Of a stretch of DNA of 64,000 nt, positions 1-26,081 are shown piece after piece. The notes under the pieces are model-generated. The model did not search any database and was not told where the DNA came from. It saw nothing but the letters and a program-made list of their open reading frames with translations. Location: sequence record OM386654.1; one strand, given 5' to 3'. Each line of letters starts with the position of its first letter. Within the stretch, counting starts at the first letter, position 1. Source of the stretch: Escherichia phage vB_EcoM_ESCO9. Made by a program: the position numbers and the translations under genes.

Positions 1-947
1 TGGGTTGCCGTAGCTTCTTGTCATACTATGCAACAGAGCAAGGTGAAAAATATGATGGTCGTTTCAACTTAGGCGTAGTTTCTTTAAACTTACCTATCAT
101 TGCAGCAGAGTCCCGTGAAAAGGGCATCTTATTTACTGAACTGTTGGAACAACATATGGAGATGGCGTATAAGGCACATATGCTACGTGTTAACCGTATT
201 AGACATACCAAAGCATCTCAAAACCCTACATTGTTTATGGAAGGGGCTTTAGCTCGACTAGAAGCTAATGAAGAGATTGGTAAACTATTCGAAGGTGGTT
301 ATGCCTCTATTAGTATCGGTTATGTAGGTTTAGCAGAAGCTATGGAGATTTTATACCCAGGTAACACCAATCCAAAAGCAATGGGTAAAAACATCCTTCA
401 ATATATGAAGGATATCTGTGGCACATTTAAAGAACGTTCTGGTTTAGCTTTTAGTTTGTATGGAACACCAGCAGAATCCTTGTGCTATAAATTTGCCAAA
501 GCATTAAATGATCGCTATCCTGGTTCTATTGATCGTGACTACTTGACAAACTCTTTCCATCAACCTGTGTGGATGCACACTACCCCGTTCCAAAAGTGGG
601 ATTATGAGGAAGGTTTTGCACAAATCAGTAATGGTGGGAACATAGGCTATGTAGAAACACCAAACCTTAAAAATAACTTGCAAGCACTGGAAACCCTTGT
701 AGATTATGCCTACAACAAAATTCCTTATTTTGGCGTGAACCAACCTGTAGATCAGTGTTTCAAATGTGGTTTTCATGGTGAATTTAAGGCAACAGCTAAA
801 GGCTTCGAGTGTCCAATTTGTGGCAATCATGAGGAAGAATCTATATCTGTAATCAGAAGAGTGTCAGGATACCTGTCTGCCCCTAACTCTCGCCCTTATA
901 ATAAAGGTAAAATGCAAGAGGTATTAGAAAGGGAGAAACATTTTTGA
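1..947 (+). CDS. nrdD: Anaerobic ribonucleoside-triphosphate reductase NrdD, C-terminal part (gene starts upstream of window)
   Basis: Open frame runs to window start; C-terminal Zn-ribbon CFKCGFHGEF...CPICGN and glycyl-radical loop RVSGYLSAP typical of class III RNR. Confidence 0.85.
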   Translation, partial: GCRSFLSYYATEQGEKYDGRFNLGVVSLNLPIIAAESREKGILFTELLEQHMEMAYKAHMLRVNRIRHTKASQNPTLFMEGALARLEANEEIGKLFEGGYASISIGYVGLAEAMEILYPGNTNPKAMGKNILQYMKDICGTFKERSGLAFSLYGTPAESLCYKFAKALNDRYPGSIDRDYLTNSFHQPVWMHTTPFQKWDYEEGFAQISNGGNIGYVETPNLKNNLQALETLVDYAYNKIPYFGVNQPVDQCFKCGFHGEFKATAKGFECPICGNHEEESISVIRRVSGYLSAPNSRPYNKGKMQEVLEREKHF

Positions 948-1414
948 ATTACGCCGGATATGAACCTGTTGACATGCTCAACGGTGATGGTGTAAGATGC
1001 TCTTTGTGGGTGAGCGGTTGTAGCCACGGTTGCCGTGGCTGCTTTAACCAGAAAGCCTGGTCGTATAACTACGGACAAGAGTTCACTACTGAAACATTAG
1101 ATCTTATCTTGAAAGATTTATCTCGACCTTTCATTAAAGGATTAACAGTTTTAGGTGGTGAACCTCTTGACAAAGAGAACATTGACACTGTAGAGTATGT
1201 TCTTGAGAAGGTAAGAGATTGTTTTGGAAACAAAAAAGATATTGTCTTATATACAGGATATCTTTTTGAAGAAATTCCAGAAAAAATTAAAAAACTGGTT
1301 GACATAGTGATAGATGGTAAGTATGATATGAATCAACCAACAACGAAACGTTATAGAGGCTCAGATAATCAACGAATGTGGGTTAAGAAAGACAACATTT
1401 GGGAATCTGACTAA
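944..1414 (+). CDS. nrdG: Anaerobic RNR activating protein NrdG (radical SAM)
   Basis: N-terminus MNYAGYEPVDMLNGDGVRCSLWVSGCSHGCRGCFN matches NrdG pattern with CxxxCxxC cluster; TTG start overlaps nrdD stop, GGGAG RBS upstream. Confidence 0.8.
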   Translation: MNYAGYEPVDMLNGDGVRCSLWVSGCSHGCRGCFNQKAWSYNYGQEFTTETLDLILKDLSRPFIKGLTVLGGEPLDKENIDTVEYVLEKVRDCFGNKKDIVLYTGYLFEEIPEKIKKLVDIVIDGKYDMNQPTTKRYRGSDNQRMWVKKDNIWESD

Positions 1415-1434
1415 ATTAAATAGAGGAGAAAACT

Positions 1435-2595
1435 ATGTTTACAGTATTCGGCAATCAAATCTTTCTGCGTCAGAAATCTGGTACAGATATTGAAGAAATT
1501 CCAGCAGGAACTTTTGGTGTAGGTGTTACTCAAAGTGGTGAGTTCTTCCTGTATCCTAAAAACGATATGGAAGTCCCTTCAGTAACATACGGTGATACTG
1601 ATGATAAATCAGAACGTATTATCAAAACGTTCCTTAGCCGCAAAGGTAAAAACACAGGTGTTCTCCTTGAAGGTACGAAAGGTAGCGGTAAAACTTTGCA
1701 AGCTAAAATGCTGTCTTCTGCTCTTCGTGAAATGGGTATTCCTACTATTTCTATCGGTAGTGCTTTTAATGGTGAAGGCTTTATCAATTTTATGTCTAAA
1801 ATCACACAACCTGTGATGATTATGATCGATGAATTTGATAAACTGTATGCTGAAAAAGATGCACAAGATGGTTTGCTTACCCTGCTGGATGGTGTTGGTG
1901 GCTACGACAAACTGTTTGTATTGACTAAAAATGATGGTTATGTATCAGAATTTTTGCGTAATCGTCCTAGCCGTATTTTCTACAGTTTTAGCTATAAGAA
2001 ACTACCTAAAGCTACTATGGATGATTATCTGGCTAAAAATCTGGAGAACAAAGCCTTCTTACCAGATTTTGAAACGCTTTATAATCTCTCCGTGGATTTG
2101 AACTTTGATATTGTTCAGTCATTAGTAGAAGAACTTAACCGTTACCCTAATGACAAATTCTCTGATGCACTTGCATTGATGGGTATCAGTATTACTGAAC
2201 ACCGCTATGCTGCAAAAGAGGTTAAACTTCTGAAAGTTAACGGTGTAGATCGTACAGGAGATGTTTCGTCAGATACCGATATTGACGGTATGACAGCACA
2301 AGGTTTGTTTAGCGGTAATCGTTATGTTGTAGCTGTAGACCATAAACTAGGTGAAGAGCATCTTCCTGAAATGGAAGGGATTGTTACCGTAGAAGATAAA
2401 GATGAAGAAGGTGATTACTACTGGGGTGTAGACCGTATCTTGCTAACGTATGATGAAAAACACATTCGTACAATGGGTGGTGACGGCTATCACTTTATGT
2501 TCACCGATGATAAAGGTAACAACATTGAAGTTGTTATTAAAAACAAAGAACGTAAAAACTACACAGAGTATGTGTTTGGTGGTCGTTCTTACTAA
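1435..2595 (+). CDS. P-loop ATPase (AAA-like), function unknown
   Basis: Walker A GTKGSGKT and Walker B-like MIMIDEFD; RBS GAGGAG; followed by GAAA-loop hairpin. Confidence 0.5.
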   Translation: MFTVFGNQIFLRQKSGTDIEEIPAGTFGVGVTQSGEFFLYPKNDMEVPSVTYGDTDDKSERIIKTFLSRKGKNTGVLLEGTKGSGKTLQAKMLSSALREMGIPTISIGSAFNGEGFINFMSKITQPVMIMIDEFDKLYAEKDAQDGLLTLLDGVGGYDKLFVLTKNDGYVSEFLRNRPSRIFYSFSYKKLPKATMDDYLAKNLENKAFLPDFETLYNLSVDLNFDIVQSLVEELNRYPNDKFSDALALMGISITEHRYAAKEVKLLKVNGVDRTGDVSSDTDIDGMTAQGLFSGNRYVVAVDHKLGEEHLPEMEGIVTVEDKDEEGDYYWGVDRILLTYDEKHIRTMGGDGYHFMFTDDKGNNIEVVIKNKERKNYTEYVFGGRSY

Positions 2596-2603
2596 GTGAT
2601 AAA

Positions 2604-2628
2604 AGGAGGCGAAAGCCTCCTTTATTTA
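2604..2628 (+). terminator. Stem-loop (AGGAGGC-GAAA-GCCTCCT) followed by T-rich run
   Basis: Perfect 7-bp stem, GNRA-type loop, TTATTTAT downstream of ATPase stop. Confidence 0.45.
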
Positions 2629-2629
2629 T

Positions 2630-2833
2630 ATGGAGGGTATTATGGATCATTATTTTGTTTTTAAAGATAAAGTTGATACCGCAGGTGGTCACGTTGCTAA
2701 AAATGATCGTGACATTAAAGAAGTATTAGGAGATCTGATTAACATTTTAGAACAAAAAGAGTTGCTTTTAGATAAGGATATTGCTAGACTTCTTGGTGTG
2801 GGGATAAGTGACATACAAAGATTACCATTCTAA
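2630..2833 (+). CDS. Hypothetical protein (67 aa)
   Basis: ORF in co-directional gene array; no recognisable motif. Confidence 0.3.
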   Translation: MEGIMDHYFVFKDKVDTAGGHVAKNDRDIKEVLGDLINILEQKELLLDKDIARLLGVGISDIQRLPF

Positions 2834-2845
2834 AGGGGGAAGAAA

Positions 2846-3001
2846 ATGCTTACAGATGATGAATATAAAGCTATCCAAGAAAAACTAACGGAGCTTGAAA
2901 TTCTTGCTGTCAATATTAAAGATCAATCACATGCTGGAAAGTTACTACATCAAGAGATCAATAAAATTAAGCAGATGATATTCTTTTGGACGGAGGATTA
3001 A
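2846..3001 (+). CDS. Small hypothetical protein (51 aa), not in ORF track
   Basis: ATG preceded by strong RBS AAGGGGGAAG; fills otherwise empty gap; stop overlaps next gene region. Confidence 0.3.
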   Translation: MLTDDEYKAIQEKLTELEILAVNIKDQSHAGKLLHQEINKIKQMIFFWTED

Positions 3002-3003
3002 AA

Positions 3004-3660
3004 ATGACTGTTAAGCATATTTCTTTTGATGTATGGAATACTCTTATTACTGCTAATCCTTTGTATGCAGAAGAACGCAACAAGGTTATTGCCGAGTATG
3101 CCTCTTGTTCTGAGGCAGAAGCAGCTACTGTTTATAAAGAGGTAAAAACTCTCTTAGATTTAAAAGCAGAAAAAGGCATTTGTGGAACGTCTAAGGATGC
3201 TTGGGTAACACTTTCTACTCGTTTGAACATTGATCTTGACAAAGTGGATGGGTTAAAAAGAGATTGTTTGGCAATGTTTATAAAACATCCTCCAACATTG
3301 AATCCTGAACTTTGCAAGAAGTTGGAAGAGCTAAGTTCAACCTACTCTTTGAGTATTAAGAGCAATACTAATTTTGTACCAGGTAGTTTCTTAGCTGTAT
3401 ATTCTGGTTTAACAAAATTACCATTCGACTTTATGCATTTTTCTGACGAGTTTTGCTTGTGTAAACCAGATCCTAGGTTTTTTAAACTCTCTTTTGATGA
3501 AATGGTGACGTTTGATCTCGCACCAGAGGAGATTTTACACGTTGGAGATAGTTTGATTTATGATGGAAAAGCTGTTGACATAGGGATGAAGTTCTGTCAT
3601 ATTATTAATCCAGAAGACTTGTTGGCTAAACTTAAAAAAGAGGAACTTATTAATGCGTAA
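3004..3660 (+). CDS. HAD-superfamily hydrolase/phosphatase-like protein
   Basis: FDVWNTL N-terminal motif, CKPDPRFF (HAD motif III KP-D-P) and GDSLIYD (motif IV); RBS GGAGG. Confidence 0.6.
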   Translation: MTVKHISFDVWNTLITANPLYAEERNKVIAEYASCSEAEAATVYKEVKTLLDLKAEKGICGTSKDAWVTLSTRLNIDLDKVDGLKRDCLAMFIKHPPTLNPELCKKLEELSSTYSLSIKSNTNFVPGSFLAVYSGLTKLPFDFMHFSDEFCLCKPDPRFFKLSFDEMVTFDLAPEEILHVGDSLIYDGKAVDIGMKFCHIINPEDLLAKLKKEELINA

Positions 3661-4510
3661 TCAAATTCAACATTTTGCTAATACTTTTACTAACCTGAAG
3701 GAAGCAAAATTTAACATTGCAGATTATTCCAAACTAAAGTTTGGTAGTAACCAGGCAGCAAAAAGAATGGGGCGCATTCTGGCTGAAAGTTTCTTTTCTA
3801 AGTATGAAGAACGACTGGTAAATGAAAGTTTTGTTGTTATTCCATCTCCATATAACTATGTGAAAAATGCAGCTACAGTGTTATCTGAACATTTTGTAGA
3901 TCACCTCAACTACCTAATCTCTATCAAAGGTGGTAAACCAGTGGAGTGGGATATCGTTCATCGTAAAGTGAGCTATATCAATGATTATGGATTTCTTAGC
4001 AAAGAAGATCGTAAGGCTTTGATCGATGGTGACACTTTCTCTATCAATCGTGATTTCTGGGGTAATAAAACTCTGATTTTCATTGATGATGTTAATATTA
4101 CAGGAACGCACGAAGAAAAACTTATTGAAATTTTAGACAAAGAAGGTGTTGAAAACGATACGTTTTTCCTGTACTTTGCAAAGTATGAAGGTACAGAAGC
4201 CAACACCGAAGCTGCACTTAACTTCAACTATATCAATAACCTGGCAGCTTTTATTAAGATGATTAAGCAAGAAACTGATGCTAAATGTTTGGTTCGTCCT
4301 ATTAAGTATCTAATGAGTCAAAGCGAAGTTGATTTTAAAATTGCACTTTCACAGCTTCCTTTGTATTATGTAGAACAACTGTTCTTTGGTTGCCTTGCAG
4401 AAGGCTACAATAACATTGAAAAATATAAAGAGAACTTTGATTTTCTACGTCAATTTTTTGAAAGCAACATTATCAATAAATCTAATGTTAAAGGGGATTA
4501 TTATGTCTAA
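3653..4510 (+). CDS. Phosphoribosyltransferase (PRTase)-domain protein
   Basis: PRPP-binding type motif LIFIDDVNITGTHEE; start overlaps HAD stop (translational coupling). Confidence 0.55.
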   Translation: MRNQIQHFANTFTNLKEAKFNIADYSKLKFGSNQAAKRMGRILAESFFSKYEERLVNESFVVIPSPYNYVKNAATVLSEHFVDHLNYLISIKGGKPVEWDIVHRKVSYINDYGFLSKEDRKALIDGDTFSINRDFWGNKTLIFIDDVNITGTHEEKLIEILDKEGVENDTFFLYFAKYEGTEANTEAALNFNYINNLAAFIKMIKQETDAKCLVRPIKYLMSQSEVDFKIALSQLPLYYVEQLFFGCLAEGYNNIEKYKENFDFLRQFFESNIINKSNVKGDYYV

Positions 4511-5219
4511 TAAAGTAATGACTTTCGGAGATCCTATCACCAATATTACAGAAAAAGATTTTGGGCGTGTAGCAACAGATAAAGATGGTGTCTTAAGAAT
4601 TCGTGTACAAGGTATTACAGCACAGGATGAATATGCTGTGTATGTTTCAGGTCTTAACTATATTGATGATCGCATTACACAAAACTTTGCACTGATCGGT
4701 GGTGTAGAGAAAATGTACTGGGAAGATGAAATTGTAACAAGTTATCCAGCAGGTATCATTGAGGTATACGGTGATCTTTTAGCAGCAGCCGAGAGAGGCG
4801 ATATAGACGCTATAGCACACTGCTGTAACTGTTTTTGCACTATGGGTAGTGGTATTGCACCAAAAATTAAAAGTAAGTGGCCTGGGGCGTTTAAAGCAGA
4901 CTGTGCCACTAAACGTGGTGATTATAAAAAATTAGGTACGTTTACCAAGTATACAGAAAACAATTTGACAATTTATAATTTATATGGACAATATGGTTAT
5001 AGTCGTCGTGAGGAAGGCAAGCGTGACCTGAATTATGAAGCTATCTATAATGCGTTAGATAGTATGGGAGACGATGTTGTATCTTCAGGCGGTAAAATTG
5101 TAGGTTTACCAATGCTTGGTTGTGGTTTGGCTGGAGGTTCTTGGAATATTGTAAAACTTATGATCGAAGAAACTCTAGTAAACAAAGGTTTAAATGTAAT
5201 TGTTTACAAACTGAAATAA
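4503..5219 (+). CDS. Macro-domain-like protein (ADP-ribose binding/processing)
   Basis: DAIAHCCNC...GSGIA and LPMLGCGLAGG resemble macro-domain phosphate-binding loops; start ATG 4503 overlaps PRTase stop; RBS AAAGGGGA. Confidence 0.45.
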   Translation: MSNKVMTFGDPITNITEKDFGRVATDKDGVLRIRVQGITAQDEYAVYVSGLNYIDDRITQNFALIGGVEKMYWEDEIVTSYPAGIIEVYGDLLAAAERGDIDAIAHCCNCFCTMGSGIAPKIKSKWPGAFKADCATKRGDYKKLGTFTKYTENNLTIYNLYGQYGYSRREEGKRDLNYEAIYNALDSMGDDVVSSGGKIVGLPMLGCGLAGGSWNIVKLMIEETLVNKGLNVIVYKLK

Positions 5220-5228
5220 GGAGAAAGT

Positions 5229-5435
5229 ATGGCAGGTGTTTTAGCAGTATTAGGTTGTTTTATTGTTGTGTTCTTGATTGTGTTAATCCCTAGTTGGCTA
5301 CTGCTTTTAGCATACAATTATATGATTGACATTATCGGCTTAGACTGGCATCATGTTCCTGTAACGTTTTGGAGTGTAGTCTGTGTGACGTTCATTCTTG
5401 CGGTACTCCGTGGTATCTTTCAATCTAACAAATAA
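5229..5435 (+). CDS. Small membrane protein (68 aa, 2 predicted TM helices)
   Basis: Hydrophobic stretches VLAVLGCFIVVFLIVLIPSWLLLLAY and VTFWSVVCVTFILAVL; RBS AAGGAGAAAG. Confidence 0.4.
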   Translation: MAGVLAVLGCFIVVFLIVLIPSWLLLLAYNYMIDIIGLDWHHVPVTFWSVVCVTFILAVLRGIFQSNK

Positions 5436-5449
5436 GAGAGGATCTTTAT

Positions 5450-5698
5450 ATGCGTAAAGTAAATGTTGAAGTGCTTGAAAAATTTATAAACACCCGTGAT
5501 TGTACTATCGGCAAGGTTTACGAGGCTATTCTCATTGAAGATGGGGATGAAGTTCCTGCCCCGTATCATGCCTTTAACGGTCAGGTTAGCAAAGTGGAAG
5601 GTGGTCTTGCTATTTGCTTTATTGATGATGTAGGTGATGCTGTAGCTTTCCCTATCATTAACAAAGAAGATAAACTTAAAATTACAGAACTGAACTAG
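5450..5698 (+). CDS. Hypothetical protein (82 aa)
   Basis: ORF with RBS GAGAGGATC upstream; no recognised motif. Confidence 0.4.
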   Translation: MRKVNVEVLEKFINTRDCTIGKVYEAILIEDGDEVPAPYHAFNGQVSKVEGGLAICFIDDVGDAVAFPIINKEDKLKITELN

Positions 5699-5726
5699 TT
5701 GACTTTCTTTAAAAACAGTTTATAGT
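5699..5726 (+). promoter_or_regulatory. Sigma70-like promoter candidate (TTGACT-16-TATAGT) upstream of terC-like gene
   Basis: Near-consensus -35 and -10 hexamers with 16-nt spacer. Confidence 0.35.
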
Positions 5727-5738
5727 ATAAGATATAGA

Positions 5739-5757
5739 GCGGAGGATTGTCCTCCGC
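5739..5757 (+). other. Stem-loop in putative 5' UTR of terC-like gene (GCGGAGG-ATTGT-CCTCCGC), no U-tract
   Basis: Perfect 7-bp inverted repeat between promoter candidate and RBS GAGGAG. Confidence 0.35.
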
Positions 5758-5775
5758 ATTAAAGAGGAGATAAGA

Positions 5776-6753
5776 ATGCAACTGGGTTTCCCAATTATTG
5801 ATGTGGTTGTTTTAGTGGGTATTTTAGTGTTGTCGATTTGTATTGATTTCTTTGGCCACAGAGAAAACAAAGAAATTTCATTTAAATCTGCAATTGGTTG
5901 GTCAATTTTTTGGATTGGGGTATCATTAGCCTACTATGGTTTTGTATACTTCCAGCACGGTGCTGATTTTGCGAGCTTGTTCTTGAGTGGGTATGTGTTG
6001 GAGAAATCTCTTTCTGTAGATAACTTAGTAGTATTTGTGGCAGTATTCGCAAGTTTTGGTATTAAAAGCACACACTTGCAACACAAGATTCTACTTTGGG
6101 GTATTGCAGGTGCGATTGTCTTCCGAGGTGTGTTTGTAGCAGTAGGCACTTACTTGTTGAGTTTGGGTTGGTATGTTAATATCTTCTTCGGTGCTGTCAT
6201 CCTTTTCTGTGCGGCTAAAATGGTATTCGCTGGAGATAATGATGCAGAAGTTGATTACTCTAAACACTGGGCTACTCGCATTGTTCGTAAGCTGTTCCCT
6301 GTATCTGATCAGATGGATGGTGAGAAGTTCTTCACAATCAAAAATGGTGTTCGTGTAGCAACTCCGGCTCTGGTTTGTGTGTTTGTAATGGAAATGGTTG
6401 ACGTAATCTTTGCAGTAGACTCTGTTCCAGCAGTAATTGCAGTGACACAAGAACCTCTGCTGGTGTTCTCTTCGATGCTCTGTGCAATCTTAGGTTTACG
6501 TGCTCTGTTCTTTGTTCTTAGTGTTGCACTGAAGTATTTGGTTCATCTGGAGAAAGCAGTTATCGTAGTCCTGGTATTTGTGGGTGTAAAACTGATGTAT
6601 CATCCGTTTGCAGAAACTCTGCACGCAAAAGTGAGTTTCCTGCCAGCACACATTGATCCGACGATCAGTATGTATATTGTGTTAGGTACTCTTGGGTTGG
6701 GTGTTATTGCAAGTTTAATCTTCCCTGAAAAAGAAGACCAGACTGTTGCTTAA
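5776..6753 (+). CDS. terC: TerC-family integral membrane protein
   Basis: Multi-TM protein with duplicated TerC signature: LEKSLSVDNLVVFVAVF and EMVDVIFAVDSVPAVIAVT. Confidence 0.8.
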   Translation: MQLGFPIIDVVVLVGILVLSICIDFFGHRENKEISFKSAIGWSIFWIGVSLAYYGFVYFQHGADFASLFLSGYVLEKSLSVDNLVVFVAVFASFGIKSTHLQHKILLWGIAGAIVFRGVFVAVGTYLLSLGWYVNIFFGAVILFCAAKMVFAGDNDAEVDYSKHWATRIVRKLFPVSDQMDGEKFFTIKNGVRVATPALVCVFVMEMVDVIFAVDSVPAVIAVTQEPLLVFSSMLCAILGLRALFFVLSVALKYLVHLEKAVIVVLVFVGVKLMYHPFAETLHAKVSFLPAHIDPTISMYIVLGTLGLGVIASLIFPEKEDQTVA

Positions 6754-6760
6754 TTCATTA

Positions 6761-6782
6761 AGCCCCTTCGGGGGCTTTGTTG
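6761..6782 (+). terminator. Intrinsic terminator (AGCCCC-TTCG-GGGGCT + T-run)
   Basis: UUCG tetraloop hairpin followed by TTTGTTG just after terC-like stop. Confidence 0.5.
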
Positions 6783-6985
6783 AGGTGATCTGATGGTAGT
6801 TTTACGTGTTCTTTGGATTCTGTTTGAAAATATTTGTTTTGCTTTAGGGTTATTTTGTTTGATTTTTATCTTGACAACATACATTGATAACCATACAATT
6901 ACTATCAACAGGAACGGAGAACAGATGTATTGTTTCTCTAGGGATTTTAAAAATTGTGTTGAGACTTTAAATGAGAGGGTTACAA

Positions 6986-7576
6986 ATGAAAAACATTAAA
7001 TCTTTTATTGTTGCAGTTGTTTTAGGTAGTGCATTGCTGGTAGGTTGTGATGATTCTGAAAATGTACAAAATCAACGTTACCAACAAACACCAAATCAGA
7101 TGGTAGATGAACAATATGTAAATCAGCCTGCACCTCAAGTTGTTCAAGCAGCACCTGCACAACCTTCAACAGTTGTTGTGCAAGGAGGCGGCAGTGGTTC
7201 TTCTGGTGTAGGTGAGTTTGCTACAGGTATGCTTCTTGGTCATATGTTGAGTGGTAATAGTGGCGGTGGTGGTTATAGAGATGGTGGTAGCAGCACAACA
7301 ATTATTAATAACAACGCTGCTCCTACAACTAACAGTAAAGCATATACAACACAAAAGCATAGTTTTTATGATAAACAAGGAAATACATATACAACCACTA
7401 AACAAAACACAATTAAGCAGCAAAGTGTACAAACGTATTCACGCCCATCAACAACAAAAGTGAATAGTGATTACTCTGCTCGTAAGTCTTACTCAAGCCC
7501 TATTAGCTCTTATAGTAAGTCTTCGAAAAGTTATTCTTCGTCGAAACGTAGTTTTAGTAGCTCACGTCGTCGTTAA
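6986..7576 (+). CDS. Putative lipoprotein, Gly/Ser/Thr-rich
   Basis: Signal peptide with lipobox LLVGC; low-complexity S/T/G-rich mature region; RBS GAGAGG. Confidence 0.5.
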   Translation: MKNIKSFIVAVVLGSALLVGCDDSENVQNQRYQQTPNQMVDEQYVNQPAPQVVQAAPAQPSTVVVQGGGSGSSGVGEFATGMLLGHMLSGNSGGGGYRDGGSSTTIINNNAAPTTNSKAYTTQKHSFYDKQGNTYTTTKQNTIKQQSVQTYSRPSTTKVNSDYSARKSYSSPISSYSKSSKSYSSSKRSFSSSRRR

Positions 7577-7611
7577 TAATTTAATACAGATTAAATAAGA
7601 AGGAGAAACAG

Positions 7612-8463
7612 ATGAAACTAGAAGTTGGTAAAGTATATCGCCTGGAAGGTTGGATCTTTAATCAAGAAATCCTTGAGAAGAATAAAGATGGTTTTGAGTT
7701 TGTTGGTACTACCAAGGAAAGTATGCACGATGACGAATACTGTAAATTCGTTGGTAAAAATACAGGTCAAGAACAATTTTGCTTTAAGAGCGCAATCGGG
7801 GACTATGCTTCTGTAATGCCAACACCAGAAAAGACTTCGAAGCAATATACTGTCTTTGGTGTAAAACTTGAAGAACTTGTAGAACACCCACGTTTTGAAG
7901 AGTTCAAGGTTGCTGCAATGCGCAAGCATTCTGAAATTAAAATACATAATTTGTTTGATTTAGAAGATCGGTTTGATATCTTTATGTATGATCGCAGGGA
8001 AAAGCATTTTGATGCAACGACTTCAAAATTTGCTGCAACAGAGGATATTAAAATCCTTGATGTTGATACCTTTCTTGAGAGTGTATCGTTTGTATTCATT
8101 CCTAAATACAAAAAACGTAGTGATCATAAACGTGTGAAAGGAACTCCTCGTAAGAAACGTACTGTAAACAAAGCAACTTTGCACTTCACTTCTGGTGATA
8201 AATATACTCTCAAAGGGTTTGAAAGTGTTTTATATGATGCTGGAACAGGTAATATCAAGTTTATCATTAAGGCAACCTACAAAGGTACGGTATTGCACGA
8301 AGAGGCTGTTACACTACCTGTATTCGATATCTCTCGTGTTGAGGTACGGGGTGTTAAAGAGTCCTTCGATCTGGATTTCTTAACTACTAATGCTACTGGT
8401 TATGTTAATCTGGAAGCAGATGGAGCATTTATTACTACAAATTATTTAGATATGTTTGTTTAA
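7612..8463 (+). CDS. Hypothetical protein (283 aa)
   Basis: Long ORF with RBS AAGGAGAAA; no motif recognised. Confidence 0.45.
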   Translation: MKLEVGKVYRLEGWIFNQEILEKNKDGFEFVGTTKESMHDDEYCKFVGKNTGQEQFCFKSAIGDYASVMPTPEKTSKQYTVFGVKLEELVEHPRFEEFKVAAMRKHSEIKIHNLFDLEDRFDIFMYDRREKHFDATTSKFAATEDIKILDVDTFLESVSFVFIPKYKKRSDHKRVKGTPRKKRTVNKATLHFTSGDKYTLKGFESVLYDAGTGNIKFIIKATYKGTVLHEEAVTLPVFDISRVEVRGVKESFDLDFLTTNATGYVNLEADGAFITTNYLDMFV

Positions 8464-8531
8464 TACTTAATTTGTGTTATGATGGTGGTACAGAGGTATC
8501 ACCATCTACTAAAGAATATGGAGGAAATTGA

Positions 8532-9635
8532 ATGTCCAGTCCTTTTATCAGTGCCGTAAAAAGCAAACCGTCTGAAATGAGTGTATTCACGGCAACAACA
8601 GAAAAAAGTAAGTCTTTGTTTGCTCCAAGTGCTATGGATGCAAGCCCTGTATATGCCCCTGCTGTTGCACGACCTGTACAAATGCTGCCTCCAATGTCTC
8701 GTGAAGAGATTGAACAGGTTGGTGCTGATGCAGGACTTACTCTTCGTAACCTTAATGCTGAAGTGCTTAAACACCAGCGTTCATCTCAGGGAGATGAAAT
8801 GAGTGAACGTTTAACTGCACTTATTAAGCAAGCAAAGCAACTTGATCCTAACTCTATTAAACAATCTAAAGGCTTAGGTAAACTAGTTAAGAAAGTATTA
8901 GGTATGAAAGAAGATTTGTTTGGTGAATTTGACACCATCAATAATCGTATTGAAGGTTTGGTAAAGACACTACAAACAGACTTGAAAAAAGAAGAAGATT
9001 CTTTACGATATCTGCAACGTTTAGAAGAGGCTATTGCAAAATATGCTCTTAGCTTAAACAGGGATATAGAGCTTCTAACAGCTACTTATGAAAAAGAAGA
9101 AGTTCGCCTTAATACACTACCTGAAAATGAAGTAGAAGAGCGTCAACGTACTCGTGACACTATGGATCTGCTTGAAATTCGTATTGCAGATCTGAAAGCC
9201 TTACGTTTACTGTGCGTTCAGATGGGGCCACGTGTACAAAGTATGCAGAAAGTATCTGCAAGTTTGATGCGATCAGCCCGTAATATTGTGAATAATGTTA
9301 TTCCTGCTTACTCTGCAAACTTTTCTATGTATATTGAAAGTCTACGCCAGAAGAAAGCAGCCGATACGCAGAACAATGTACTGAATGAATTTAATGCTGC
9401 TATTGCAATGGGTAGTGATCTGGCTGCACAAAACCAGATTGAAGCTACACAACTTGCTAATCGTCAAGTATTGGATATTGAAACATTGCGTCGTGATCAA
9501 GAAAACTTAGTTAAAATGTTGGAAGAAACTAACCGAATCAACACTGAAGCCCGTGCTGCTCGTATTGATTACATTCAAGAAGTGCAATCTCTTGAAGATG
9601 GTATGATTCAAACTGTTAAACGTGGTCTACTTTAA
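8532..9635 (+). CDS. Coiled-coil protein, candidate TelA/KlaA-like toxic-anion-resistance family member
   Basis: 367-aa predominantly helical/coiled-coil protein; assignment rests mainly on size, composition and position between terC-like and terD-like genes. Confidence 0.35.
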   Translation: MSSPFISAVKSKPSEMSVFTATTEKSKSLFAPSAMDASPVYAPAVARPVQMLPPMSREEIEQVGADAGLTLRNLNAEVLKHQRSSQGDEMSERLTALIKQAKQLDPNSIKQSKGLGKLVKKVLGMKEDLFGEFDTINNRIEGLVKTLQTDLKKEEDSLRYLQRLEEAIAKYALSLNRDIELLTATYEKEEVRLNTLPENEVEERQRTRDTMDLLEIRIADLKALRLLCVQMGPRVQSMQKVSASLMRSARNIVNNVIPAYSANFSMYIESLRQKKAADTQNNVLNEFNAAIAMGSDLAAQNQIEATQLANRQVLDIETLRRDQENLVKMLEETNRINTEARAARIDYIQEVQSLEDGMIQTVKRGLL

Positions 9636-9648
9636 GGAGAAATATATT

Positions 9649-9855
9649 ATGAATATTAAAATTTACAAACTGTCTGGTTCTATGATTGCTGTTCAGTATG
9701 ACAATGAAGATCGTTATGTTCTCCTCCAGGATGCTTGGTTAGATGATCCTAATGTATTCACTGTCCTGCGAGAACTACGTTCTGTCTATACCTATTCTTC
9801 TAAAGATGGTTTTGACAATTCAACGATGGAATTGGTAAAAGAGGAGAATGTGTAA
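9649..9855 (+). CDS. Hypothetical protein (68 aa)
   Basis: ATG with RBS AAGGAGAAA. Confidence 0.4.
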   Translation: MNIKIYKLSGSMIAVQYDNEDRYVLLQDAWLDDPNVFTVLRELRSVYTYSSKDGFDNSTMELVKEENV

Positions 9856-10055
9856 TGAGTAAAGATATTCACTTAACTCGTGAAGAATTGCAAACCATTA
9901 TGGAAGATGCTTTCATTGATGGTTGGAAACAAGGTCAAGAATCAGATTGGTATGATGCCGAAGATTTTTTGTATTATCATATGACTGCACCTGTAGACGA
10001 GCAAACACACTCTGAAACAACTTTGGCTTTAATTGATCTTAAGGCTGGTGTATAA
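9855..10055 (+). CDS. Hypothetical protein (66 aa)
   Basis: ATG with RBS GAGGAG, start overlaps previous stop. Confidence 0.4.
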   Translation: MSKDIHLTREELQTIMEDAFIDGWKQGQESDWYDAEDFLYYHMTAPVDEQTHSETTLALIDLKAGV

Positions 10056-10618
10056 TGGGGTGTTTTAGTTTCTTGTGCAAAGAGTCTGGTAATGCTGCTC
10101 TTTCTACCTCTTTCGATGGCTCTCCTTGCTACCTATTTCTTTTGAAAGGTGGTAAGGTTGTCGAAGAGATGTATGGGAATTATGATAGCTATGGTAGTGT
10201 TTTCTCTAACGAAGAAGATAAACATGGCAATCGTAAAAGATTTAAGTGGTCTATGCCTTGGGAAGAAGTTTGTAATTTGATGTTCTCTTCCGATCTTGGA
10301 GATGGGATTGCTCTAGTATTAGAAGAGCACTTTACAGGCGAGATCCCAACAGAAAGATCTGAAGAAGACCCTAACCAGGGTTGGGGTGATGGGGAAGAAG
10401 ATCCAGATTGCTTCTTCAGCACTGAAAATAATAAATTTAAACGTGTTGACAATCCTTACCACAAAGTGCATAATACTTGCATTGAGACAGAAGAAGACTC
10501 AAAGCTAGAAATTGAAGATGATTTAGTTGTAACTATCTCTTTAAACGAGTTGCAAAAAATCACTAGAGAGGCTTTCTATTTAGGTTGGAAAGTAGGTAAA
10601 GGAGGAGATAGTGCTTAA
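10055..10618 (+). CDS. Hypothetical acidic protein (187 aa)
   Basis: ORF in coupled array; Asp/Glu-rich. Confidence 0.4.
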   Translation: MGCFSFLCKESGNAALSTSFDGSPCYLFLLKGGKVVEEMYGNYDSYGSVFSNEEDKHGNRKRFKWSMPWEEVCNLMFSSDLGDGIALVLEEHFTGEIPTERSEEDPNQGWGDGEEDPDCFFSTENNKFKRVDNPYHKVHNTCIETEEDSKLEIEDDLVVTISLNELQKITREAFYLGWKVGKGGDSA

Positions 10619-10880
10619 ATTTAATATCAAAGACGACAAATCAGATGAACCTAAATGTTTTGGAGAACTTGACGTAGGTGATACATTTGTATATTATGTT
10701 GCCTATCAAGATTCTGGTTTAGATACATTCAGAAATTTAGTGTTTATTAAGGTTAATACAAACCAAGCAATGTGTCTGAACGGTTCGCAAAGAGGTCAAC
10801 TTAGCTGTATTTCGTATGATACAGAAATGGTAGAAGTGGATTTAGAAGTTACTAACATTACACTCAGAAAGGAGAAATAA
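10611..10880 (+). CDS. Hypothetical protein (89 aa)
   Basis: GTG start with RBS AGGAGGAG. Confidence 0.4.
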   Translation: MLKFNIKDDKSDEPKCFGELDVGDTFVYYVAYQDSGLDTFRNLVFIKVNTNQAMCLNGSQRGQLSCISYDTEMVEVDLEVTNITLRKEK

Positions 10881-10881
10881 T

Positions 10882-11676
10882 ATGTCCAATAAAATCAGTC
10901 TTAAAAAACGTCAAGAAACTCTTACCGTATCTCTGCGTAAGAAAAAGATTAACGATGTTGTTCTTCGTGTCGGTAGTGCCTTAGATATTTCGGGTAGTAT
11001 GTGTGAGCTGTATCGTGATGGCACTGTTAGTGATTTTGTAGGTAAACTGCTGCCGTTTGGTATGAAGTTTGATGATAATGCACAGATTGACATGTGGGCT
11101 TTCAATAGTTCTTCTTTTGAACTGCCTCCTGCAACGGCTGATGTATATGATGATTATGTCGGCTCTTGTATGTCTAATGTTTGCATCAATGGTGGTACAG
11201 CTTATGCCCCAGTAATGCAAGAGATCTATGATACATACTTCGGTAGTGTACCTATGAAAAATATTACACGCGAAGTCGTTGAGTATGAAGAAGTTCCGGC
11301 TAAGGGTTTCCTTGCTAAACTAACTGGTAAAAAAGAACGTGTAGAAGTTACACGTACTGTTGTAGAACAGGTTGTAGATACTGATGCACAAGTTGATCGT
11401 ACTCCTGCAATGATTTTCTTCCAAACTGACGGGGAGAACATGGATACTTCAGCAGTACGTAGTTTGCTGAACAAACACCGCAACACTCCTGTTTACTGGT
11501 TTATGGTTGGTGTAGGCAATGCAAACTTTAAATTCCTGAAAGACTTGGCAAAAGAATACGATAATGTTGATTTTATCGGTATTGCAGATTTGTCCTTGTC
11601 TGACGAAGAACTTTACGATAAACTGCTATCCGAAGAGTTTGGTGAGTGGGTTAAAAAATTTGGAGCAAAAGCGTAA
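10882..11676 (+). CDS. vWA-domain protein (TerY-like) with TerD-like N-terminal segment
   Basis: MIDAS motifs LDISGSM, GGTAYAP and FFQTDGENMD; N-terminus MSNKISLKKRQETLTVSL resembles TerD N-terminus. Confidence 0.55.
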   Translation: MSNKISLKKRQETLTVSLRKKKINDVVLRVGSALDISGSMCELYRDGTVSDFVGKLLPFGMKFDDNAQIDMWAFNSSSFELPPATADVYDDYVGSCMSNVCINGGTAYAPVMQEIYDTYFGSVPMKNITREVVEYEEVPAKGFLAKLTGKKERVEVTRTVVEQVVDTDAQVDRTPAMIFFQTDGENMDTSAVRSLLNKHRNTPVYWFMVGVGNANFKFLKDLAKEYDNVDFIGIADLSLSDEELYDKLLSEEFGEWVKKFGAKA

Positions 11677-11683
11677 AAAACGC

Positions 11684-11711
11684 TTGACTTTGTAGAAAAG
11701 ATTAGTAAAAT
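11684..11711 (+). promoter_or_regulatory. Sigma70-like promoter candidate (TTGACT-16-TAAAAT) upstream of terD
   Basis: Consensus-like hexamers, 16-nt spacer, about 40 nt upstream of terD start. Confidence 0.4.
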
Positions 11712-11748
11712 AGACAACGTAAATTAACAACAAAGGAGATAATAAATT

Positions 11749-12345
11749 ATGACTCAGAAAATTTCCCTGAAAAAAGGTTCTAGCGAAAAAGTTTCTCTGA
11801 AAAAGATTGCACCAGCACTGAAACGCATTCGTCTGGAATTCTCTTGGAAATCTAACGAAAAACTGGATCTGGATGTTAGTGCTCTGATTTGCCGACACAA
11901 TGCATCTGGTCTGCCGGAACTGTTGTCTCCTCGCCACCTGGTGTGCTACGCGCAGAAATTTGATCCTGAACGTTCTACTTTTGCAGGTGAAGATGTTCGT
12001 GATGGTGTAGGACAGATGGAGCAGATTGATGTTACACTGGATAATATCTCTGCTGAAGCACAGGAAATTGCATTCGTAATTACTATTGATGACGAAACGG
12101 GTAAGAAACGCCTTGGTCACGCTACCGAAGGTTTCCTTAAAATCTTCGATGATGAACGTAATGTTGAACTGCTGGATTTTGACTTCTTGGCTCCAGAACT
12201 TGCAGGTAATACCATTTGCCACGTTGCCTCCCTGGTGCGGGAAGATAGCGAATGGAAACTGAAAGCATATGGTGTAGGTAAAGCTGGACTTGACATTTAT
12301 GATGTAGTTAAAGCGTTTGGCGCTGGCGACGATTGGTTCGAGTAA
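11749..12345 (+). CDS. terD: TerD-family protein
   Basis: ISLKKG...KVSLKK, LDLDVSALIC, FVITIDD, EWKLKAYGVG align in order with the TerD family pattern as recalled from E. coli TerD. Confidence 0.85.
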   Translation: MTQKISLKKGSSEKVSLKKIAPALKRIRLEFSWKSNEKLDLDVSALICRHNASGLPELLSPRHLVCYAQKFDPERSTFAGEDVRDGVGQMEQIDVTLDNISAEAQEIAFVITIDDETGKKRLGHATEGFLKIFDDERNVELLDFDFLAPELAGNTICHVASLVREDSEWKLKAYGVGKAGLDIYDVVKAFGAGDDWFE

Positions 12346-12354
12346 TAAATCATA

Positions 12355-12378
12355 GCGCCCTTCGGGGCGCATATTTTA
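12355..12378 (+). terminator. Intrinsic terminator (GCGCCC-TTCG-GGGCGC + AT/T-run)
   Basis: UUCG tetraloop hairpin immediately after terD stop. Confidence 0.5.
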
Positions 12379-12397
12379 AATAGAAGAGGAGAAAACA

Positions 12398-13000
12398 ATG
12401 GGTATTACTTTAGAAGGTCAAAAACTTATTCGTAGCGGTAATTTTCTTGTGGATATTGACAACAATGAAGATTATGCTTTAGAAGTTAGTGATGTACTGT
12501 TTAATGCTTTGCAGTCTGGTTTCAATTTTGAAGTTTATGAAGTAATCCGTGGAACTAAACTCAGAGATACCCTTGGATCAACTAGTGATGTTTATTCGGC
12601 AATCTGGCAATATTTCGGGTTAATGGATGGTAAGACATACCTTACTGATAGTTATTCTGAAGATGTTGTTTATCTTGATATGGAAGAGTTTCGTCGTCTG
12701 TTCAAAAATGAAGAAAATGAAGAAGAGGGTGAACTTTTTGAAGGAATTACTCTCGAAGGTAATGTTGAAATTGTGTATAAAGCAGGAAAAACATTCCACT
12801 TGCGCGAAAACGGTAAAGCAAAAGTTGATTTTGTAAACAAGACAGTAACAACTGAACATAATTATCTTAAAGATGGTCAACCAGCTTTTGAACGTGTAAC
12901 AATTAAATTTAAAGTATTGTCTGCACTAATTACGGATCAAGAACGTATTGATTTTGTAGAAGATGGTGTAGTAACTCATACGAAGGTCTACAACATCTAA
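12398..13000 (+). CDS. Hypothetical protein (200 aa)
   Basis: ORF with RBS AGAGGAG. Confidence 0.45.
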   Translation: MGITLEGQKLIRSGNFLVDIDNNEDYALEVSDVLFNALQSGFNFEVYEVIRGTKLRDTLGSTSDVYSAIWQYFGLMDGKTYLTDSYSEDVVYLDMEEFRRLFKNEENEEEGELFEGITLEGNVEIVYKAGKTFHLRENGKAKVDFVNKTVTTEHNYLKDGQPAFERVTIKFKVLSALITDQERIDFVEDGVVTHTKVYNI

Positions 13001-13010
13001 CAGGGTGTAA

Positions 13011-13029
13011 GAGGGGGATAATCCCCCTC
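13011..13029 (+). other. Stem-loop GAGGGGGA-TAA-TCCCCCTC (no U-tract)
   Basis: Perfect 8-bp inverted repeat after the 12398-13000 gene. Confidence 0.35.
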
Positions 13030-13032
13030 AAC

Positions 13033-13061
13033 TTGCAAAACAGCCTCTTCTGTGTTACAAT
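13033..13061 (+). promoter_or_regulatory. Sigma70-like promoter candidate (TTGCAA-17-TACAAT)
   Basis: Hexamers with 17-nt spacer upstream of cell wall hydrolase gene. Confidence 0.35.
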
Positions 13062-13092
13062 AAAAGTTCGTTTAACAAAATAGGAGGCAAGT

Positions 13093-13602
13093 TTGTCAAT
13101 AAAAACCTTTGTCGCAATTGCGTTACTATCCTTAACTGCTTTTACATTTACACCTGTCGTGGCGCAAGCCGAAGCTGCAAACGTAAAAACTGCTAAAGTA
13201 GTTCACAAGTGTACAAAGCGTGATAGTAAAGAAAATCTATTAGCTTGTGCAATCTATGCAGAAAGTCGTAATCAAGGAAAGCGCGGTATGTCTGCTGTTG
13301 GTAATGTAGTATTAAATAGGGCTAGAGATTCATATTTCCCTGATACTATAAAAGAAGTTTTGTTTCAAAAAGGACAATTCTCTTACACAAAGACATTCAA
13401 CGTTATGGAACGTGATAAGTGGAAGGAAGCTAAGGCTATAGCAGAACGTCTGCTTTATCTCGATACGCATTTTCCAGAATTACGAATTGCATTAGATATT
13501 ACAAAAGGAGCATTATACTTTAAAAAATCTACAATAAGAGCACACTGGGAAAAAGATATGGTTCTAGTGTACCGCTACAAAGAACATCAATTCTATCGCT
13601 AA
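13093..13602 (+). CDS. Secreted cell-wall hydrolase, SleB/Hydrolase_2-like
   Basis: N-terminal signal peptide (…FTPVVAQAEAANV); motif CAIYAESRNQG...GNVVLNRA...FSYTK typical of SleB-type cell wall hydrolases; TTG start with RBS AGGAGG. Confidence 0.6.
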   Translation: MSIKTFVAIALLSLTAFTFTPVVAQAEAANVKTAKVVHKCTKRDSKENLLACAIYAESRNQGKRGMSAVGNVVLNRARDSYFPDTIKEVLFQKGQFSYTKTFNVMERDKWKEAKAIAERLLYLDTHFPELRIALDITKGALYFKKSTIRAHWEKDMVLVYRYKEHQFYR

Positions 13603-13612
13603 GGAGATATAG

Positions 13613-13891
13613 ATGAAAGATGGCGTTATCGTTGCAAGTTATCTTGTTATTGGTCTTACAGAAGAGGATGTACATTACATTAGGAAACATTTAGAACAGT
13701 TTGCAATGATGTTCATCGAAGACGAAGACAATATGGATGTTTATTCAATTGAAATGATCAATGATAACGTCTATCCTTGTATAGCTTTACGAGTCGATGA
13801 AGATGTTTGGGAACGTTTTTCACGTAGTCACGATAATGTTGAATGTTCTATGGTTATGTCACAAAACAACATACTGGGAGTGTTACACTGA
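13613..13891 (+). CDS. Hypothetical protein (92 aa)
   Basis: ORF with RBS AAGGAG. Confidence 0.4.
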   Translation: MKDGVIVASYLVIGLTEEDVHYIRKHLEQFAMMFIEDEDNMDVYSIEMINDNVYPCIALRVDEDVWERFSRSHDNVECSMVMSQNNILGVLH

Positions 13892-14121
13892 TGGCTGATG
13901 TTATTGAGGTTAACTTTAAAACAAAAAAGAAAGTTGATAAGTATACAATCTTAAAAAATATTTGCGTTGTGTGCTTCAATTCTGTAATATATGACTCACG
14001 TAAGGGCGAAAATGAAAATGAACCTTACATCCAGATTTCTAAAGGTAAAGGGCAGTGTATCTGCAAAAACTGTGCTGTAGCAATTAAGGAGGTTGTAGAT
14101 GAAAACCATTGGGATCAATGA
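13891..14121 (+). CDS. Hypothetical small Cys-rich protein (possible zinc ribbon)
   Basis: ATG 13891 overlaps previous stop (ATGA); CVVC...CICKNC pattern. Confidence 0.35.
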   Translation: MADVIEVNFKTKKKVDKYTILKNICVVCFNSVIYDSRKGENENEPYIQISKGKGQCICKNCAVAIKEVVDENHWDQ

Positions 14122-25349: not shown

Positions 25350-26081
25350 ATGAGCGAATTTGTAAACAACACCGCATTAAACTACCTGCAAACCCTCGAA
25401 AGCAATAGTGTAGATTTGATTCTTACTGACCCACCATATGCTATTTCTCGTGACACAAATTTTCAGTCTGGAGAGCCTACTGGAAAAGATACGGATAGAT
25501 TCCGTGTATCTTACAACTTCGGTGATTGGGATGTTGTAGATATTCCTTACTTTAAAGAAGTATTCAAAGAAGCCTACAGGGTGCTTAGAAAAGGTGGTAC
25601 TTGCATAGTTTGGTATGATATCTGGAAGATCCAGGAACTACGTGAAATCCTTGAACCGCTTGGTTTTCGTATGTTCCGTACCATCGAATGGATTAAAACA
25701 AACCCTGTACCCATCAACAGTGGTGTTAACTACCTTAGTAACGCTAAAGAGATGGCTATTGTTTGTGTTAAAGGTTCGAAACCAACCTTCAATGCTTCCT
25801 ACCATAAGGGTGTGTTTGAGTATCCTATCTATCAAGGAGCAGATCGTTTTCATCCAACACAAAAACACTTGACTTTGTTTTGTGACCTTATTAATATACA
25901 CACCAACGAAGGAGATGTAGTCTTAGACTTCTTCTCTGGAAGTGCAACAACACAAGTTGCGGCACTTTTAACAGGTAGAGAATACTTAGGCTGTGAAGCC
26001 GATGTAAATATTTTTAAGCAAGCGGAGGAACGACTAAATGAGTACACTGAACAGCAAAATCACCCTGAAAGCACTGATTAA
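25350..26081 (+). CDS. DNA methyltransferase, beta-class amino-MTase (N6-adenine or N4-cytosine)
   Basis: Motif IV DPPY (LILTDPPYAI) precedes motif I-like VLDFFSGSATT; no adjacent restriction endonuclease recognised. Confidence 0.75.
   Translation: MSEFVNNTALNYLQTLESNSVDLILTDPPYAISRDTNFQSGEPTGKDTDRFRVSYNFGDWDVVDIPYFKEVFKEAYRVLRKGGTCIVWYDIWKIQELREILEPLGFRMFRTIEWIKTNPVPINSGVNYLSNAKEMAIVCVKGSKPTFNASYHKGVFEYPIYQGADRFHPTQKHLTLFCDLINIHTNEGDVVLDFFSGSATTQVAALLTGREYLGCEADVNIFKQAEERLNEYTEQQNHPESTD

Follow-up and report, generated by a model that had tools for sequence, protein, structure and literature searches.

A TelA-family protein within a conserved, abbreviated Ter-type gene module of Escherichia phage vB_EcoM_ESCO9

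Relationship to described TelA and Ter systems

The closest described counterpart of the gene considered here is Phi92_gp178, a 'putative stress / toxic anion resistance protein' to which it is orthologous. The gene lies at positions 8532..9635 (+) of a 64,000-nucleotide stretch of Escherichia phage vB_EcoM_ESCO9 (sequence record OM386654.1; the whole stretch is called the window below), starts with ATG and encodes a TelA-family protein of 367 residues. The window DNA is 98–99% identical to that of Escherichia phages Paula, VEcB, alia and phi92 (Stephanstirmvirinae, genus Justusliebigvirus), and the phage is a phi92-like lytic myovirus. Phi92_gp178 and its orthologs (PHROG 5890) are the same gene, with 99–100% protein identity in Justusliebigvirus records and ~78% in Phapecoctavirus; their position and neighbours are identical to those found here, and nothing of substance is different. 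RefSeq and many GenBank records name the gene 'tellurite resistance' or 'TelA-like protein', others 'toxic anion resistance protein', and many 'hypothetical protein'. An earlier note, made from the letters of the sequence, had seen in this product the TelA/KlaA partner that accompanies TerC and TerD in some loci; the TelA assignment is correct but not new, since GenBank and RefSeq already annotate the gene in this way. Annotations and published discussion already exist for the gene, its family and the phage Ter module.

Phage Ter systems, including signal-synthesis phosphoribosyltransferase (PRTase) and HAD enzymes, have been described by Iyer, Anantharaman, Krishnan, Burroughs and Aravind (Viruses 2021, PMC7824862). 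In their scheme the PRTase and HAD enzymes produce a nucleotide-like signal, TerB and TerD sense ligands, TerC provides a membrane response, and TelA, along with TerF's vWA domain, is assigned to sub-membrane structures; phages are proposed to use Ter against superinfecting phages (PMC7824862). The set formed by terC, terF-vWA, terD and telA has been reported in Klebsiella phage phiKp34 (PMC8386662) and in phiPsa374 (PMC9796965). The better known terZABCDEF operon (IncHI2 R478, E. coli O157), historically linked to phage inhibition and colicin resistance (PMC8386662, PMC9796965), shares with the phage module TerC, TerD and a vWA domain like the C terminus of TerF. The phage differs in having no TerB, TerW, TerX or TerY, in encoding one TerD paralog instead of several, and in possessing TelA, which is not among the terZABCDEF genes.

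Compact relatives are the cassettes of Pseudomonas phage phiPsa374 (Otagovirus), Caulobacter phage CcrSC (Bertelyvirus) and the Burkholderia vietnamiensis conjugative plasmid pBVIE01, which contain the same four Pfam families on one strand as the locus described here, and the phiPsa-type TelA fold matches our model at a template modelling (TM) score of 0.65. However, their TelA proteins are only 22–28% identical to the one in the window. The TelA-vWA-TerC-TerD set is contiguous or nearly so in the two phages, as verified with Pfam, and contiguous on the plasmid, whereas in the window it occupies 6.6 kb, is interrupted by eight other open reading frames (ORFs) and has TerC in first place. CcrSC and pBVIE01 also carry a DUF475-type TerC instead of the Alx-type protein of the present phage, and genes for HAD, PRTase_3 and Macro proteins accompany the module here.

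Cellular TelA proteins (RK2 KlaB/TelA, Bacillus subtilis YceH and YaaN, Listeria monocytogenes Lmo1967) belong to the same Pfam family, are of similar length and are all-helical, but share only ~20–28% identity with the protein described here; they are members of host stress regulons, whereas the latter is expressed by a lytic phage. The KlaA half of the label in the earlier note does not stand, since RK2 TelA corresponds to KlaB, not KlaA, in the kilA/telAB nomenclature. RK2 TelA works with KlaA and TelB, neither of which turned up among the ORFs scanned here, no search dedicated to KlaA or TelB having been made. The RK2 operon order is given as klaA-klaB-telB. In Listeria, mutation of telA (lmo1967) raises sensitivity to nisin 4-fold and to tellurite 2-fold, through a mechanism described as unknown (Collins 2010, via PMC12791056).

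The reading of the phage locus that we prefer, at a probability of roughly 45%, is that TelA, the vWA protein and TerD would form a sub-membrane assembly beside TerC that alters or stabilises the envelope of the infected cell.

Family membership, predicted fold and conservation

The protein scores 118.3 bits (E = 5.1e-34) with the Pfam TelA profile (PF05816), for which the gathering score is 30; residues 57–362 align with profile positions 13–330 of 332. The PHROG 5890 profile 'tellurite resistance' matches it over its full length (E = 9.5e-137). PF05816 is present in all 42 of the 42 homologs retrieved from a database of 5.8 billion proteins, and a profile search of 1.84 billion cluster representatives gives 4,140 related clusters at E ≤ 0.001, mostly of 350–400 residues; homologs encoded on plasmids are labelled 'toxic anion resistance protein'. 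Columns at least 90% conserved in 134 diverse homologs include G64, L147, D220, L221, Q230, P258, T318, I336 and R344 (numbering of the phage protein). Traits typical of the family are all found here, namely a size within 350–400 residues, an all-α architecture and the lack of a transmembrane segment. NCBIfam holds no model matching the protein, and no confident match to a family other than TelA appeared among the searches made. The gene therefore almost certainly encodes a TelA-family protein.

A generic coiled-coil protein, resembling TelA through its helical composition alone, would be a competing explanation of these matches. PDB sequence searches would agree with it, as those started from the single protein, from an 18-sequence profile and from a 134-sequence profile all yield only low-complexity or coiled-coil noise (for example SNAP-29, ZW10 and haemagglutinin HA2). 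However, the protein scores four times as high as the Pfam gathering cut-off and covers the profile from end to end, the near-invariant family residues G64, D220, L221, Q230, P258, T318, I336 and R344 are present, all homologs found are TelA proteins, the structural matches described below are specifically to TelA proteins, and the gene context is conserved. The likelihood of a generic coiled coil is negligible; the Pfam match, the homologs, the conserved residues and the fold matches effectively refute it.

The polypeptide has a mass of 41.3 kDa and an isoelectric point of 5.9; Leu, Ala and Glu are abundant in it, and it contains one Cys, one His and no Trp. Its maximum Kyte-Doolittle mean over 19 residues is 1.08 and no transmembrane segment is found, in keeping with a soluble protein. 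Comparison with orthologs of 79% (phage nepoznato) and 75% (Klebsiella phage KP13-26) amino-acid identity gives a ratio of nonsynonymous to synonymous substitution rates (dN/dS) of about 0.09–0.10, which is approximate because dS is near saturation, although its direction is clear. The gene thus encodes a protein under purifying selection.

The structure was predicted with AlphaFold2 from the 134-sequence alignment (predicted local distance difference test, pLDDT, 68.5; predicted TM score 0.58); this model replaced an earlier one built from 18 sequences, whose pLDDT of 57.9 was too poor. Both runs predict a protein that is essentially all-helical from residue 57 to the C terminus, as the earlier note had expected of a helical, 367-residue product, correctly delimited to the nucleotide and with no obvious enzymatic motif. 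Residues 50–270 mostly have pLDDT values of 70–96. In the model, short helices at residues 57–111 precede a very long antiparallel hairpin (125–195 and 201–281), and a final long helix (318–366) follows a low-confidence stretch at 277–323. What the earlier note called 'coiled-coil' is better described as a bundle arranged around the long hairpin. Among the predicted viral structures of BFVD, the best non-identical matches to the model are TelA proteins of unrelated phages (TM 0.59–0.65 at 15–17% identity), including those of phiPsa397 and Lactobacillus phage Semele (TM 0.61–0.65, E values of 2e-8 to 2e-7), which confirms family membership at the level of the fold.

The segment that links the short helices to the hairpin, residues 110–124 (KQSKGLGKLVKKVLG), carries a net charge of +5 and has a helical hydrophobic moment of 0.63, compared with a protein-wide mean of 0.31 (standard deviation 0.16). 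A net charge of at least +2 is found at the aligned segment in 82% of the 134 homologs. Its sequence pattern makes residues 110–124 a plausible candidate for a membrane-docking amphipathic helix.

The gene context was compared by hidden Markov model and phmmer searches built from Pfam-verified proteins and run over six-frame ORFs of 21 loci; the 18-sequence TelA alignment, used as a query, gave 14 related loci. The order HAD, PRTase, Macro, TerC, small protein, lipoprotein, 283-residue protein, TelA, vWA and TerD is kept in Paula, in nepoznato (Phapecoctavirus), in KP13-26 and in four IMG/VR contigs, and metagenomic relatives whose TelA is ~50% identical retain Macro, TerC, the lipoprotein, the 283-residue protein, TelA, vWA and TerD. 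In every related locus the vWA gene keeps its synteny with TelA and TerD. Homologs of at least 60% identity occur in nearly equal numbers of phage records (131 for TelA, 131 for TerD, 132 for vWA and 132 for TerC). Together with the phage and plasmid cassettes described above, TelA, vWA, TerC and TerD are thus found together throughout the subfamily, in unrelated phages and on a conjugative plasmid, and the linkage of TelA to these partners is a conserved one. An unrelated 78-kb viral contig (L017), whose TelA is 22% identical, also links TerC, HAD, PRTase_3, TelA and TerD; its HAD and PRTase_3 genes (8127–9681) are adjacent, as in the window, and lie beside TelA.

Smaller genes of the region are less constant. 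The 187-residue gene between TelA and vWA (10055–10618 in the window, PHROG 14928) is absent from a nearly identical IMG/VR contig (L007, 11524–11585) and was not detected in KP13-26, and nepoznato has a second copy related to the 89-residue ORF between vWA and TerD. These differences between loci indicate that the interspersed small genes are variable and the four Ter genes fixed.

TelA is also found by itself. In jumbo phage GAP32 and three other contigs it occurs without Ter partners in flanks of up to ~10 kb per side, so that TelA can evidently act without TerC, TerD or vWA nearby. Such phages argue for a protein that works alone as a protector against membrane stress, in the spirit of PspA/Vipp1, keeping the inner membrane intact and energised until lysis, its proximity to TerC, TerD and vWA then not reflecting a physical complex. 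We consider this stand-alone role unlikely for the present phage and favour the joint assembly, in which the partners linked to TelA across the subfamily would take part.

The earlier note had also suggested that a complete Ter-type module was captured or evolved in this phage. A conserved Ter-type module is present and recent capture can be set aside: the nearest TelA from a cell or a plasmid reaches no more than 28% identity (TelA of other phage lineages, 22–25%), the guanine-cytosine (GC) content of the region is 0.37, the same as in the rest of the window, and synteny extends over the whole subfamily. Recent horizontal transfer from a host is rejected on these grounds, and the module looks like an old, vertically inherited feature of the phage subfamily, ancestral rather than newly acquired.

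Five GenBank records named 'Campylobacter phage', MG065645.1 among them, give Campylobacter jejuni as the host and also match this phi92-like E. coli phage region, and the TelA protein of Campylobacter phage A145 is 100% identical. These records look mislabelled or derived from contaminating coliphages.

The Ter block and its neighbours

All genes in the TelA part of the window are on the + strand and belong to a replication and nucleotide-metabolism arm, with NrdD/NrdG upstream and a primase-helicase and DNA polymerase downstream (Table 1 gives the features nearest to TelA). TelA lies between the terC-like and terD-like genes on the same strand, as the earlier note had placed it, but adjoins neither: three ORFs separate it from TerC, and five, one of which is the TerF-type vWA gene, from TerD.

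Table 1. Features of the TelA gene product and of the surrounding Ter block, in window coordinates unless residues are given.
Feature	Position	Strand	Remarks
AAA ATPase	1435..2595	+	
HAD-fold hydrolase, candidate phosphatase of Ter-linked metabolite synthesis	2986..3660	+	PF00702 26.2 bits, just below gathering score 26.4
PRTase_3, ComF-like phosphoribosyltransferase	3653..4510	+	PF15610 143 bits
Macro-domain protein	4503..5219	+	PF01661 31.3 bits; start overlaps end of PRTase gene
Two small ORFs	between Macro and TerC	+	
GC-rich perfect hairpin GCGGAGGATTGTCCTCCGC	5739..5757		just upstream of TerC; consensus scan; possible transcription-unit boundary
TerC, integral membrane protein, Alx subfamily	5776..6753	+	PF03741 133 bits; NCBIfam TIGR03718 322.8 bits, cut-off 246.4
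Small hydrophobic protein	6793..6999	+	weak DUF6693 match
Putative lipoprotein	6986..7576	+	LVGC lipobox (MKNIKSFIVAVVLGSALLVGC), then Gly/Ser-rich low-complexity tail
283-residue protein without assigned function	7612..8463	+	
Shine-Dalgarno GGAGG	8520..8524	+	7 nt before ATG at 8532; strong ribosome-binding site; read from sequence
TelA-family protein, 367 residues, Phi92_gp178 ortholog	8532..9635	+	Pfam PF05816, PHROG 5890, BFVD fold matches
TelA N-terminal region	residues 1–56		poorly predicted, probably disordered, except conserved MSSPF start
Helical TelA domain	residues 57–366		
Basic amphipathic linker of TelA	residues 110–124		
Four small ORFs	between TelA and vWA gene	+	
TerF-C-terminal-type vWA protein	10882..11676	+	PF10138 vWA-TerF-like 134.5 bits
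TerD-domain protein	11749..12345	+	PF02342 98.2 bits
GC-rich perfect hairpin GCGCCCTTCGGGGCGC	12355..12370		directly after TerD; consensus scan; possible terminator

The core of a Ter module in the extended sense of Anantharaman, Iyer and Aravind (2012), TerC and TerD on the same strand, is present, as are the accessory TelA and TerF-type vWA proteins. Of the Ter-linked synthesis enzymes (PRTase, HAD phosphatase and ATP-grasp), PRTase_3 scores 143 bits and HAD falls marginally below its cut-off; a Macro domain occurs beside them. Among the 20 ORFs scanned between 944 and 13602, no Pfam match to TerB or to ATP-grasp was found. The 'complete' module of the earlier note is therefore an abbreviated one and not a full terZABCDEF set with its entire biosynthetic arm; in being abbreviated it resembles other phage Ter sets.

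The missing TerB also bears on whether the TelA gene confers true resistance to tellurite or toxic anions, as a moron from which the host would profit while infected or in pseudolysogeny. The family name and the database annotations would point that way, and xenobiotic resistance during pseudolysogeny has been mentioned as possible (PMC7824862). However, the phages concerned are virulent, tellurite is a rare selective agent, no TerB is seen in the ORFs scanned, and the authors who described phiPsa374 judged tellurite resistance unlikely because the operon is incomplete (PMC9796965). We regard such a moron as very improbable, and the envelope-directed assembly of TelA, vWA and TerD remains the reading that we prefer.

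Over its full length, the phage TerC matches the model of the TerC/Alx 'metal homeostasis membrane protein' (TIGR03718) at 322.8 bits. This assignment would suit a module that mainly adjusts metal homeostasis, in which TerC/Alx exports Mn2+ or another cation, TerD binds Ca2+ and TelA is a regulatory or scaffolding accessory, for example in providing phage or envelope enzymes with metals. Nearby genes encode metal-dependent enzymes, namely the anaerobic ribonucleotide reductase NrdD and its radical-SAM activase, and terC of Klebsiella has been linked to zinc as well as tellurite resistance (PMC12054061). However, nothing ties TelA to metal binding, its single Cys and single His lying outside the conserved columns, and a simple transporter model leaves both vWA and TelA unexplained. 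Cellular alx genes are controlled by a yybP-ykoY-type riboswitch. No Rfam family matches within positions 1–14000 of the window at E up to 1, which indicates that such a riboswitch is absent upstream of the Alx-type TerC of the phage. A role in metal homeostasis appears distinctly unlikely, and we retain the sub-membrane assembly, with TerC as its membrane partner, as the better account of the four genes together.

Just upstream of TerC, the HAD, PRTase_3 and Macro genes (2986–5219) are closely packed, and their starts and stops overlap. This enzyme set suggests that a ribose-phosphate-linked small molecule is made or processed. With PADLOC the Macro protein is similar to the DarG macro domain (E = 1e-13), the only PADLOC resemblance in the module. 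Genes for phosphoribosyl pyrophosphate synthetase, nicotinamide phosphoribosyltransferase and a Macro homolog lie a few kb upstream of the TelA-vWA-TerC-TerD cassette of phiPsa374 (L004, 1776–6343), a further instance of genes for ribose-phosphate and NAD-type metabolism close to the Ter set of a phage.

Between TerC and TelA, the genes for the small hydrophobic protein, the lipoprotein and the 283-residue protein hold the same position in all Stephanstirmvirinae-like loci, and the latter two do so also in the group with ~50% identical TelA. These three genes (6793–8463) may encode envelope components of the Ter block that are uncharacterised and specific to the lineage.

The two GC-rich hairpins bracket the block from TerC to TerD and may delimit a transcription unit; the counterpart of the upstream one (5739–5757) is annotated in phage Paula as a terminator on the opposite strand. 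The 68-nucleotide gap 5′ of TelA contains a 7-bp inverted repeat (GATGGTG at 8481–8487 and CACCATC at 8500–8506) just upstream of the Shine-Dalgarno sequence, and an extended -10-like motif, TGTTATGAT, at 8475–8483. As read from the sequence, the repeat (8481–8506) or the -10-like motif could be a local promoter or an element of translational control. Elsewhere in the window, six tRNA genes (Ile-GAT, Met-CAT, Leu-TAG, Phe-GAA, Pro-TGG and Gln-TTG) are clustered at 62852–63567 (-), and the GC skew changes sign near 26,000, where coding passes from the + to the - strand.

A possible sub-membrane TelA/vWA/TerD assembly

According to the reading favoured here, the infected cell would produce TelA as a soluble, all-helical protein based on its long helical hairpin, and TelA would dock on the cytoplasmic face of the inner membrane through the conserved basic amphipathic segment. 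Together with the vWA protein and TerD, it could then form a sub-membrane assembly acting alongside the TerC membrane protein, and with this assembly the phage would modify or stabilise the envelope of its host cell. Plausible benefits are the exclusion of superinfecting phages and of colicin-like agents, and the tolerance of envelope stress until lysis. A ribose-linked small molecule, sensed by the module, may be the product of the enzymes encoded upstream (PRTase, HAD and Macro). Resistance to tellurite, from which the family takes its name, would be a side effect and not the function selected for.

Several observations weigh against this reading. The structural model is only moderately confident (pLDDT 68.5), with residues 13–48 and 277–323 below 50. 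No solved TelA structure is detectable: Foldseek with the TelA model gives nothing at E ≤ 0.001, and PDB fold matches are generic helical hairpins. Membrane binding by residues 110–124 is deduced from a sequence pattern. The four Ter genes, dispersed as they are among other ORFs, form no tight operon, and GAP32 and the three contigs mentioned above carry TelA without its partners. None of the PADLOC-DB v2 defence models matches TelA, TerC, vWA or TerD, the functions of the phiPsa374 set were stated to be unknown by the authors who reported it (PMC9796965), and no experiment on any phage-encoded TelA or Ter module was found in the literature.

A more detailed version of the same idea can be formulated, which we regard as doubtful. 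Membrane-docked TelA would polymerise with the TerF-type vWA protein and TerD beneath the inner membrane, and a ribose-linked signal from the PRTase, HAD and Macro enzymes would control the resulting lattice. The whole would be a device for superinfection exclusion or for guarding the membrane, shared by lytic phages and conjugative plasmids.

As regards the gene itself, the TelA result confirms an existing annotation and reveals nothing new, and its residual value is practical. A compact, universally conserved module in phi92-like phages growing on E. coli K-12 is a convenient system in which to study TelA, vWA, TerD and TerC jointly. If a signal-controlled TelA/vWA/TerD lattice did prove to be true, it would provide the first defined cellular mechanism for the long-enigmatic Ter/TelA system.

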